64,000 nt of DNA from Escherichia coli (lineage in GTDB: Bacteria > Pseudomonadota > Gammaproteobacteria > Enterobacterales > Enterobacteriaceae). A program made the translations under genes and the position numbers. Of this stretch, positions 20,693 to 30,327 are shown one piece after another. The stretch lies in the NCBI RefSeq assembly GCF_003334765.1, contig NZ_QOWT01000001.1; one strand, 5' to 3'. The stretch's first letter is position 1. The number at the start of each line of letters is the position of its first letter. The notes under the pieces were generated by a model. The model did no database searches, was not told the origin of the DNA, and saw nothing but the letters and a program-made list of their open reading frames with translations.

Positions 20693-20712
20693 TGCTGGTT
20701 ATCTATCCAGTG
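20693..20712. promoter_or_regulatory. LexA (SOS) box upstream of cho
   Basis: Reverse complement CACTGGATAGATAACCAGCA is a near-palindromic CTG-N10-CAG LexA-type operator, 14 nt upstream of the cho start. Confidence 0.65.
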
Positions 20713-20761
20713 TAACAGGCGGGAAGCGATTAAAAAAGAGGCGGGTCGATGACAAAGGTTA

Positions 20762-20872
20762 CACCGTCTGACGTGCTACGCCTGTCAGGCCTATTCGACT
20801 CCTGCAATGTATTGAATTTGCATAGTTTTATAGGTCGAATAAGGCGTTCACGCCGCATCCGGCGTGAACAAA
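20762..20872. repeat. Composite REP/BIME-type repeat (two REP-like palindromes flanking a conserved spacer)
   Basis: Contains gcctgtcaggcctat and taggtcgaataaggcgttcacgccgcatccggcgtgaaca; the spacer cctgcaatgtattgaatttgcatagtttta recurs nearly identically at 27949-27978. Confidence 0.7.
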
Positions 20873-20908
20873 TTACTCTTTTTCGCACAATCCAATATGT
20901 GCAAATTA

Positions 20909-21736
20909 TTACTTTTTCCAGAAATCATCGAAAACGGTAATTGGCGGACGGCGTTTATGTTCGGTTTTCAGATACCAGTTCTCTATTGTTCTGGCGACCT
21001 GTTGAGGTACGTTTTTCCCTTCCAGATAGTCGTCGATATTGTCATAGGTCACGCCGAGTGCCACTTCATCTGGCAGAGAAGGGCGATCATCTTCCAGATC
21101 GGCCGTTGGCGCTTTCTTATAAAGGTGTTCCGGGCAAGCTAATGCCGCCAGTAACTGTTTACCCTGACGTTTGTTGAGACGATACAGCGGATTAATGTCC
21201 GTACCGCCGTCACCATATTTAGTGAAGAATCCGGTAATGGCTTCTGCTGCATGATCGGTGCCCACCACGACACCGCTGGTCATACCCGCAATGCTATATT
21301 GTGCTTTCATCCGCTCACGCGCTTTTTCATTGCCACGGACAAAATCGCTCAGTTCAATGCCTGCTTCCCGCAATGCCTGTTCGCTGGCCAATACCGCGCC
21401 CTTGATATTAACGGTTAATACGCGATCCGGTTGAATAAAGGCAATGGCATCCTGGCAATCTTGTTCGTCGGCCTGAACACCATAGGGCAGGCGTACGGCA
21501 ATAAATTGCAGTGATTCGTTGCCGGTTTCCAGGCGCAGCTCATTAATCGCCATCTGGCACAGCTTTCCGGCAAGCGTGGAGTCCTGACCGCCGCTGATCC
21601 CGAGCACCAGTGATTTAATGAACGGATAAGTTTGCAGGTAGCTTTTCAGAAAATCGACACTACGACGAATTTCCTCTTCAGCATTAATCTGCGGTTTTGC
21701 GCCCAGCGCCTTTATTATTTGTTGTTGCAATGTCAT
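20909..21736 (-). CDS. nadE: NH3-dependent NAD+ synthetase
   Basis: 275 aa; [22 protein letters not shown] and PP-loop SGGQDS. Confidence 0.96.
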
Positions 21737-27814: not shown

Positions 27815-28015
27815 ATGTTTGCCAGATGCGGCGTGAACCTTGCATCCGGCGATTAATTCCTACAAAGGCGGCGTAACTGCGCCGCTTGAGACTGCTGACA
27901 AACGCAAAACTGCCTGATGCGCTTCGCTTATCAGGCCTACGTGTTTCCTGCAATATATTGAATTTGCACAGTTTTGTAGGCCGGATAAGGCGTTCACGCC
28001 GCATCCGGCATAAAC
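27815..28015. repeat. Cluster of REP/BIME-type palindromic repeats between chbG and katE
   Basis: Three REP-like units (gccagatgcggcgtgaaccttgcatccggc; tgcctgatgcgcttcgcttatcaggcctac; gtaggccggataaggcgttcacgccgcatccggca) plus the conserved spacer shared with 20795-20830. Confidence 0.75.
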
Positions 28016-28038
28016 AAAGCGCACTATGTAAATCATTT

Positions 28039-28062
28039 GAGGCGGCGCAATTGCGCCGCCTC
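28039..28062 (-). terminator. Perfect 11-bp-stem hairpin immediately 3' of katE
   Basis: gaggcggcgca-at-tgcgccgcctc; sits just after the katE stop codon. No strong U-tract. Confidence 0.45.
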
Positions 28063-28065
28063 CCA

Positions 28066-30327
28066 TCAGGCAGGAATTTTGTCAATCTTAGGAATGCGTG
28101 ACCACACGCGGTGTGCTGCCATCAGCGTTAGCAGTTCATCCATAAAACTACCGTCAGCGCTGTCAGCTTCCACAATCCCTTCTTCACCCTGGTCAGCGAC
28201 CTTGATTGTTGCTTTAAACTTGCGCGCGTCACCCGCCAGCGCAATCGGTTTAAGGTGTTTGTAGGCTTCCATCAGGTAGTAGTTGGCATCGCCGTTGTCA
28301 GCGATATCCGCGATATTGCCGCAAGGGACAATGACCGCATCGACCGTCAGCGAAGGTGCACCGGCAAAGGTAGCGGCTATAGGCAACACCGTACCGTCAT
28401 CCGCAGTCACTTCACCCATTCGGGAGTAGAGCAGTTTGGCATGAACGCCTTTGGCCTTCAGCGCCTTGAGAATGGCCAGAAGGTCTGCCGATCTCACTTC
28501 ATCATTAAGTAAAATCGCTACCACGCGACCTTTCACATCACCGTCAGGAATGGCGTACAAACTTAAGGATGGATCCTTTTTCAGACCGTTGACGTCCGGA
28601 GGTGGGGTGATATTCAGCTGGTCGTCAGTCAGTTCGATACCGAGATTTTTCGCCACCGCCTGGGCCAGAGTGAGATCAATATGCGCCAGCTGGTCAACAA
28701 CGCGCTCACGAATATACGGACGAACGACTTTGCTTAACTCAAAACTGAAACCATCGACAATATGGCGCTGCTCAAATGGCGTCTGACTTAGCCAGAACAG
28801 ACGCGGATGGGAATAATATTCGCCAAACGATGGGCTGCGCTCGCGAACTTTATTGCCTTCCACGCGCTCCTGGTATGATTCAAAACCGCCGCGTTTCGGC
28901 CCCGGCGGTGTTTCGCGCGGCCAGTTATCGTTAATCGAGTTCGGTTCGTAATTCGCCGGGTTAGTGTCGATCCCCATGCGATGCATGCCGTCACGCTGGA
29001 AATTATGGTAAGGGCAGGTCGGACGGTTAATCGGAATCTCATGGAAATTCGGCCCACCAAGACGACTGATTTGTGTATCGGTATAGGAGAACAAACGTCC
29101 CTGCAACAGCGGATCGTTGGTGAAGTCCAGTCCCGGCACGATATGCCCAGGATGGAAAGCCGCCTGTTCGTTTTCAGCAAAGAAGTTATCCGGGTTGCGA
29201 TTGAGCACCATTTTGCCGACACGCTGAACGGGCACCAGTTCTTCCGGGATAAGTTTGGTTGGATCGAGAAGATCGAAGTCGAACTTGAATTCATCTTCTT
29301 CAGGAATCAACTGGAAGCCCAGTTCGTATTCCGGAAAATCGCCTGCTTCAATGGCTTCCCACAACTCGCGGCGGTGGAAGTCCGGGTCACGTCCGGTGAG
29401 TTTTTGTGCTTCATCCCAAACGAGTGAGGCTTTACCTGCCAGTGGTTTCCAGTGGAAACGTACAAACGTTGCCTTCCCTTCGGCATTAATCAGGCGGAAG
29501 GTGTGAATACCGAAGCCTTCCATGGTGCGGTAACTGCGGGGGATGCCGCGATCCGACATCGCCCACATCACGTTGTGCAGAGTTTCAGGTTGCAGAGAAA
29601 CATAATCCCAGAAAGTATCGTGGGCACTTTGCCCTTGTGGAATTGCCCAGTGCGGTTCTGGTTTTACCGCATGAACAAAATCGGGGAATTTATGCGCATC
29701 CTGGATAAAGAAGATTGGCGTGTTATTGCCAACGAGGTCAAAAATACCCTCTTCGGTATAGAACTTGGTGGCAAAGCCACGGATATCACGCACGGTATCA
29801 GCAGAGCCAGCACCACCCTGAACGGTAGAGAAACGTACAAATACTGGGGTGATTTTGTTCGGATCTGAGAGGAAATCCGCTTTGGTAATATCGCTTAAGC
29901 TTTTATATGGCTGGAAATAACCGTGAGCGGCTGATCCGCGTGCATGAACAATACGTTCCGGAATGCGCTCATGGTCAAAGTGGGTGATTTTCTCGCGCAG
30001 AATAAAATCTTCCAGCAGCGTTGGACCACGGCTACCGGCACGCAGTGAGTTTTGATCGTCGGCGATGCGCACGCCCTGATTAGTGGTCAGCGCATAATTT
30101 TCACTGCCTTTGCGTACGTCTTCCAGAGAATTAAGTTTTTCGTTACGCGTATCAGGGGCTTTCAGGCTCCCTGGGGCGGTAGGTTGTGCACCTGGCGGTG
30201 TTGGTTCAGCCGCTGGACGATGAGAGCCGTCCTCAGGTGCCAGTGAGTCCATCCCCGGTTTCGCTTCGCTGGAATCGTGTAGTGGTGACTGGTGCTGATG
30301 TGGGTTCTTTTCGTTATGTTGCGACAT
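28066..30327 (-). CDS. katE: Catalase HPII (large-subunit monofunctional catalase)
   Basis: 753 aa; [21 protein letters not shown]-terminus and catalase core motifs. Confidence 0.97.

Follow-up and report, generated by a model that had tools for sequence, protein, structure and literature searches.

Two similar blocks of DNA, offset by 7146 nt, are found in the nadE-cho and chbG-katE intergenic regions of E. coli K-12, which raises the questions of what kind of element they represent and whether both have the same history. The analysis was carried out with a 64-kb stretch of the genome, referred to as the window, in which the relevant genes are arranged in the order cho-nadE-osmE-chbBCARFG-katE and where position x equals position 1844194 - x of NC_000913.3 (checked on cho). 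A 3-kb segment around the first block is 100% identical to MG1655 and related strains, and the locus is found in 5426/5426 complete E. coli genomes. A repeat search of the entire window returned a single direct-repeat family of 123 nt (20750-20872 and 27896-28018, 81% gapless identity) and no tandem family. A preliminary description of this DNA had quoted a block at 20762-20872, which is present there, and had placed an almost identical second copy at 27949-28010; a near-copy is indeed found around 27908-28018, but its start had been set too far to the right, i.e., the z1-type REP begins at ~27911 and the full element at 27887.

Both blocks are extragenic and are located at the 3' ends of transcription units. 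The first, below referred to as copy 1, resides in a 229-nt spacer that extends from the nadE stop codon (20909-20911, minus strand) to the cho start codon (20679, minus strand), and it ends 12 nt past the nadE stop codon. The second, copy 2, is found in a 257-nt spacer between the stop codons of chbG (27808, plus strand) and katE (28066-28068, minus strand). The view that both copies are situated between convergent or terminating genes is correct for copy 2, the neighbors of which are convergent; copy 1 is found at the 3' end of nadE, but its neighbors are not convergent as the element is located directly upstream of cho. The RefSeq K-12 record contains no repeat_region feature in this part of the genome, and simple scans of the two intergenic regions identified neither a canonical intrinsic terminator nor a sigma-70 promoter.

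With high confidence, both blocks are members of the E. coli BIME-1 family, i.e., a non-coding repeat of ~153 nt that resembles a miniature transposable element. The family has been known since the early 1990s, and recognition of the two copies as such is not new. A BIME-1 is defined by a z1- and a y-type REP that are inversely oriented, by an L linker that is long and conserved and often harbors an IHF site, and by the presence of single copies per locus (PMC3333891; also PMC2817692). These elements have a size from 140 bp and are present or absent among isolates (PMC1187871). The terms RIP (repetitive IHF-binding palindromic element) and RIB (reiterative ihf BIME) are synonyms that go back to Gilson et al. 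1991, Boccard & Prentki 1993 and Oppenheim et al. 1993, as far as these studies are represented in PMC3333891, PMC2817692 and PMC3184786.

The same order of segments is found in both copies, where direct reading gives the orientation: an inverted z1-type REP (...CAGGCCTAC), a linker of 35 nt and a y-type REP (GTAGGCCGGATAAGGCGTTCACGCCGCATCCGGCA, GTAGGCC...). This arrangement agrees with the earlier suggestion of a BIME or RIP type of element, in which REP-like palindromes surround a spacer that is AT-rich and has an IHF-like core. In copy 2 (plus strand unless otherwise stated), the left end motif (TGAGACTGCTGACAAACGCAAAAC, 27887-27910) is a near-consensus match to the left flank of the family. 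It is followed by the inverted z1-type REP (27911-27940, minus strand), in which CTAC is intact and which differs at one position from the z1 consensus (29/30; hairpin at -9.4 kcal/mol). The L linker (27941-27975), delimited using the linker pattern and a segment comparison and matched by the Rfam model ES036/CssrF, contains the predicted IHF-like core ATTCAATATATTG (27951-27963, minus strand), one mismatch away from WATCAANNNNTTR. In the y-type REP (27976-28010) GTAG is intact, the stem holds an internal mismatch and there are no mismatches to the y consensus (35/35; -20.9 kcal/mol). The right end motif (TAAACAAAGCGCACTATGTAAATCATTTGA, 28011-28040) aligns with the family right flank TGAACAAAGCGCACTTTGTCAACAATCTGA, i.e., both end motifs of this copy are well kept.

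Copy 1 is built in the same way, but is decayed. Its left end motif (20741-20766) is a degenerate "A"-type flank with a recognizable core, TCGATGACAAAGG, which upon direct reading matches the consensus of 58 family members, TGAGACTGATGACAAACGCAAAATTG, at ~14/26 positions. The inverted z1-type REP (20765-20794, minus strand) has CTAT for CTAC and 7 mismatches to the z1 consensus (23/30; hairpin at -8.5 kcal/mol). Its 35-nt L linker (20795-20829), also matched by ES036/CssrF, contains the predicted IHF-like core ATTCAATACATTG (20805-20817, minus strand), again with one mismatch to WATCAANNNNTTR. The y-type REP (20830-20864) has ATAG for GTAG, a weakened stem and 4 mismatches to the y consensus (31/35; -11.5 kcal/mol). 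The right end motif (20865-20897), placed using the family alignment, the orthologue alignment and the ORF list, is a degenerate "B"-type flank, and in the 58-member alignment both end motifs of copy 1 are weakly kept. The IHF-like core of the two linkers (ATTCAATAYATTG) reads ATTCAATA(Y)ATTG on the minus strand; its one-mismatch agreement with the IHF consensus was scored on a loose nine-position consensus, to which such matches are frequent by chance, and the one local support for the site is its positional conservation in the family, within a region that was fixed by the search pattern.

A MAFFT alignment of copies 1 and 2 has a mean column identity of 86% over 151 columns. The y REP is identical at 31/35 positions, followed by the AT-rich L linker as the second-best conserved segment (29/33) and the z1 REP (21/30). 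Because the linker is conserved to this extent, the similarity of the two copies is not limited to the GC-rich REP cores, and the possibility that identity outside these cores is at the level of chance was not borne out. With up to 3 mismatches allowed, each of two 34-nt patterns, one for the linker and one for the y REP, matches copies 1 and 2 only in the 64 kb, and neither pattern was matched in 100 dinucleotide-preserving shuffles. Each locus in the window has one match to the linker pattern, i.e., the element is a single unit rather than a tandem array.

An alternative interpretation is that both blocks are small-RNA genes, where the linker is a functional RNA (ES036/CssrF) rather than part of a DNA repeat element. 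The alignment of the 43-nt model Rfam RF02751 with the L linker is end to end for both copies, on the minus strand at 20787-20829 (42.9 bits) and 27933-27975 (55.5 bits), and both scores exceed the gathering score of 37.6. Furthermore, the RNA from which the model was built, located between dacB and yhbZ of Shigella flexneri, is known from a Northern blot (PMC3071730). However, the model represents the linker as RNA and comprises neither the REP arms nor the element at the DNA level, while this same linker belongs to a repeat that is found at ~19-31 or more places per genome. Simple scans found a promoter-like site in neither region. For both copies the minus strand is also the sense strand of the upstream gene (nadE and katE, respectively), so that a signal is expected from read-through into the 3' UTR. 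An independent small-RNA gene is therefore improbable, and the Rfam matches agree with the BIME-1 assignment rather than compete with it; we read them as the BIME-1 linker inside 3' UTRs. For annotation, this means that the nadE-cho and chbG-katE spacers can be labeled BIME-1, with the ES036 matches found there read as its linker. The Rfam model of naRNA4 (REP325) was also considered at the y REPs, but its scores (39.7 and 26.9 bits) fall below the threshold of 59.5 and were treated as generic REP similarity.

The proximity of the two copies and their identical orientation could also indicate a local segmental duplication over 7146 nt, rather than two members of a dispersed family. Yet, the similarity stops at the ends of the element, and the outer flanks are identical at only 14/27 and 17/36 positions (~50%). 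In addition, every E. coli genome has the z1-L-y unit at tens of unlinked loci, other genera have it as well, and the ages of the copies differ, where copy 1 is fixed and common to sister species, while copy 2 is polymorphic. The dispersal of the unit led us to reject this explanation, to which we assign almost no probability. A chance pairing of independent REP hairpins with a meaningless similarity of the spacers, as the abundance of REPs, their frequent pairing and the presence of a third REP doublet in the window (377-470) might suggest, is just as remote and was rejected in view of the shuffled sequences, the identity of the linkers, their conservation across 58 relatives and the clearly different linker of the third doublet, from which it follows that REP pairing alone does not yield an L-type spacer.

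The dispersed nature of the BIME-1 family is evident from searches of other genomes. The 111-nt block has matches in 5426/5426 complete E. coli genomes, with at least 40 pieces. A count of the spacer alone, proposed earlier as a check, gave matches of the 36-nt linker in all 5426 genomes at a median of 19 places and up to at least 40; among the strains listed, the six with the best match (100% identity to the query) have 30-31 places. The exact 20-mer of the linker core, TGCAATRTATTGAATTTGCA, occurs in 84 stretches among 100,044 species genomes (one genome per species), nearly all of which belong to Escherichia (E. albertii, E. coli, E. whittamii and two further species) and Pseudocitrobacter; other enterobacterial genera in this set have no match. 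Five matches outside the Enterobacteriaceae (L011, L039, L040, L068 and L070) have no surrounding REPs and were treated as chance. The 20-mer is also matched in contigs assigned to Desulfosporosinus sp. OT (L012, 262 nt) and Methylobacterium frigidaeris (L069, 261 nt), which are too short to place; the latter contains a complete z1-L-y unit and further REPs. Enterobacterial contamination of these two assemblies is the most likely explanation.

The extent of the unit was defined from an alignment of 58 non-tandem members, in which the central 20 nt of the linker are fixed by the search pattern. Conservation is at least 70% from TGAGACTG... (TGAGACTGATGACAAACGCAAAAT, left) to ...AATCTGA (right) and then drops to ~30%, giving a unit length of 152-155 nt. 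The unit ends in conserved, mutually inverted motifs, AGACTGATGACAAA and AGATTGTTGACAAA, which agree at 12/14 positions. We equate them with the extra-PU motifs termed "A" and "B" by Gilson et al. 1991. A different arrangement is found in Escherichia sp. MOD1-EC7003, where z1-L-y units without the outer end motifs form tandem arrays, one with 7 units at a period of 107 nt (L074 2719-3380) and one with 5 units at a period of 115 nt, including one gap of 230 nt (L081 388-982). Thus, in a sister species the BIME-1-type linker is also found in a tandem, "atypical BIME" arrangement.

In a comparison with known elements, both copies share with BIME-1 the z1 and y REPs in inverse orientation, the L linker with an IHF-type site, the extragenic location at a 3' end as one unit per locus and the size of ~140-155 bp including the flanking motifs. 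No difference from BIME-1 is found for copy 2, which may also share the presence or absence among isolates, while copy 1 is a decayed member, with CTAT/ATAG for CTAC/GTAG and weak end motifs, that is fixed rather than polymorphic. Both BIME-2 and the atypical BIMEs likewise consist of extragenic REPs of the same superfamily in alternating orientation. However, BIME-2 combines z2 and y REPs with short S linkers and s/l/r flanks, forms tandem arrays, binds gyrase strongly and lacks the L linker (PMC3333891, PMC1475751); neither copy in the window is tandem or has a z2 REP.

More distant elements share parts of this plan. The REPINs of Pseudomonas fluorescens also consist of two inverted REPs and a spacer as the presumed moving unit, served in trans by a single-copy Y1 transposase (RAYT) (PMC3116915, PMC3337134). 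They differ in their REP sequences, and neither an IHF-type linker nor conserved outer inverted end motifs are described for them; moreover, a target duplication is not expected for these Y1/HUH elements, whereas BIME-1 copies are often flanked by a duplicated hairpin. The Correia/NEMIS elements, which are miniature transposable elements of Neisseria, also are small and non-coding, have inverted repeats and a central IHF site, are co-transcribed with their neighbors and affect mRNA processing (PMC3184786), but their sequence is unrelated, they carry promoters, they have a short TA target duplication and they lack REP hairpins. With MITEs the family has the terminal inverted repeats in common, but not the fixed, short target-site duplication; instead of the 2-10 bp typical of DDE elements, the flanking repeats of BIME-1 are 12-30 nt, vary in length and correspond to a locus-specific stem-loop.

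From the outside in, the layout of BIME-1 comprises inverted end motifs, z1 and y REPs whose CTAC/GTAG tetranucleotides face the center and an AT-rich, IHF-type linker of 35 nt. In other copies of the family, the REPs on both sides of the IHF site in the linker are bound by gyrase and Pol I (PMC3333891, PMC3184786, PMC9023263), and binding of IHF to the linker is described for such copies (PMC2817692, PMC3184786). As DNA, the elements may therefore be bound and bent by IHF in the linker, between two REPs that would be able to bind gyrase and Pol I. Transcribed REP hairpins of other copies stabilize upstream mRNA and attenuate transcription (PMC3333891, PMC3184786, PMC9023263). By analogy, at the RNA level the REP hairpins in the 3' UTRs of nadE and katE/chbG could act as barriers to 3'-5' exonucleases, and the hairpins of both copies could provide signals for partial termination or attenuation. 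The family as such would have spread via processing of single-stranded DNA by a REP-associated Y1 transposase (TnpA-REP/RAYT), as suggested in the literature. These proposed roles of copies 1 and 2 are extrapolated from published work on other copies.

The two copies have contrasting histories. A 901-nt query that includes copy 1 has a full-length match in 5426/5426 E. coli genomes, as a single aligned piece in 39 of the 40 genomes listed, and E. whittamii and Escherichia sp. E1V33 have orthologues with CTAC, GTAG and the consensus z1 stem all intact. Along the E. coli lineage, CTAC has changed to CTAT and GTAG to ATAG, i.e., at mirror-image positions, and the y stem has become weaker. The z1 stem (20770-20789), compared to that in E. 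whittamii and Escherichia sp. E1V33, displays a two-sided change from GAT..ATC to GAC..GTC that preserves the pairing. The K-12 allele of copy 2, on the other hand, is found in 1939/5426 genomes. In the other chbG-katE allele the spacer is a different one, of 46 nt and with its own hairpin, which represents a wholesale replacement rather than a clean empty site; clean presence or absence of BIME-1 is found at two other loci, tcdA-mltA and lpdA-yacH.

The REP-associated transposase requires GTAG and a stem mismatch for binding and cleavage (PMC3333891). Of the features of a TnpA-REP substrate, copy 2 has GTAG, CTAC and the internal mismatch loop of the y stem, while copy 1 reads ATAG/CTAT. Judged by its sequence and the criterion of GTAG plus a mismatch, copy 2 is predicted still to be a competent TnpA-REP/RAYT substrate. 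Copy 1, in which both tetranucleotides have been lost, is best read as an old, immobilized relic that would predate the species E. coli, and any activity that it still has may not be the same as in an intact element. The two copies constitute a small natural pair, one fixed and decayed, the other intact and polymorphic, with which one may ask what a BIME-1 does once it is immobile.

In strain cS100a (NZ_CM176582.1; L003 631-905), i.e., in 1 of the 5426 E. coli genomes, a fragment of ~259 nt is found inside the L linker of copy 1, which it interrupts at window position ~20812. The fragment is 100% identical to part of aceF, its annotation is that of a partial "E3 binding domain" pseudogene, and both junctions have a repeat of TGTA/ATGTA. 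Either a real ectopic insertion or an assembly artifact could account for it.

On either side of copy 2, a GC-rich, terminator-like hairpin that is specific to the locus is found as a direct repeat (plus strand), AGGCGGCGTAACTGCGCCGC at 27866-27885 (-15.4 kcal/mol) on the left and AGGCGGCGCAATTGCGCCGC at 28040-28059 on the right, which are identical at 18/20 positions; the stem of the right-hand hairpin spans 28039-28062 and ends 3 nt short of the katE stop codon. This arrangement is not confined to chbG-katE. The two flanks share a direct repeat with a score of at least 12 in 13/57 family members, compared to 2/600 controls that combined left and right flanks from different loci. Overall, flanking direct repeats are found in 13-16/57 copies; they are 12-30 nt long, where the length follows the size of the hairpin, and the hairpin differs from one locus to the next. 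At additional BIME-1 copies the flanking stems are conserved, while the loops have diverged.

Alleles with and without the element can be compared directly at two loci. At tcdA-mltA in E. coli, the empty allele has one mltA terminator stem-loop, and the occupied allele is longer by 162 nt, with the element between two copies of the stem-loop. At lpdA-yacH, a single hairpin, which is a bidirectional terminator, is found in the empty allele, and in the occupied allele, longer by ~172 nt (142 nt in another comparison), the element is again found between two copies. The T-tract at tcdA-mltA is kept by the hairpin copy distal to the upstream gene, and its counterpart at lpdA-yacH is retained in part by the right-hand copy (CTTCTTAATT vs TTTTTTAATT). 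The pattern of hairpin duplication as such is well supported. For copy 2, an insertion with duplication of the hairpin is inferred by analogy, because the alternative chbG-katE allele is a replacement rather than an empty site; this allele was considered as an empty-site control, but is uninformative.

As to how the duplication arises, one tentative proposal is that BIME-1 integrates beside the stem-loops of intrinsic terminators and duplicates the whole stem-loop, i.e., that the target duplication is defined by structure and is variable in length (~12-30 nt), although the comparison of occupied and empty alleles is unpolarized, such that insertion and deletion between repeats both fit the allele pairs. 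Such a duplication would differ from both known modes, where Y1/HUH transposition yields no target duplication and DDE transposons yield fixed, short ones (PMC3333891). The element would end up between a proximal hairpin without a T-tract and a distal hairpin that keeps it, in which case the whole repeat would become part of the 3' UTR. Full-text searches found no prior description of the flanking hairpin duplication, but Bachellier et al. 1997 and Boccard & Prentki 1993 may already report flanking repeats. It is the sole point of this analysis that might extend beyond textbook knowledge and, if not already described, it would constrain the mechanism by which BIME-1 spreads.

Several other features of the window deserve mention. 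Between copy 1 and the cho start codon, a LexA-box-like palindrome, CTG-N10-CAG, is found at 20704-20723 (minus strand CACTGGATAGATAACCAGCA), presumably the SOS box of cho/ydjQ. The decayed copy 1 ends ~20 nt from this palindrome, i.e., the element separates the 3' end of nadE from the regulatory region of cho. In the chbG-katE spacer, an additional degenerate, y-like REP hairpin (TGCCAGATGCGGCGTGAACCTTGCATCCGGCGA, 27820-27852, -13.5 kcal/mol) starts 11 nt past the chbG stop codon and shows 81% complementarity to the y REP in copy 2. REPs within ~15 nt of a stop codon reportedly lower translation of the upstream gene, a finding attributed to Liang, Rudd & Deutscher 2015. The third REP doublet (377-470), located between the convergent genes gdhA and ynjI, is composed of two REPs, the first inverted and GC-rich and the second z1-like, with a linker of 34 nt (ATTAGAGCGTAACTGCAATGAATTGTGCCCATTT) between them; this linker has CTGCAAT and ...ATTTGTAGG in common with the L linker, but is otherwise different, and the doublet could be a diverged BIME-1 or another type of BIME. 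Finally, two Rfam matches above the gathering score and unrelated to the repeats are found at 44918-45042 (Phe leader, i.e., the pheST attenuator, 75 bits) and 48883-49041 (STnc540 sRNA, 67.4 bits).
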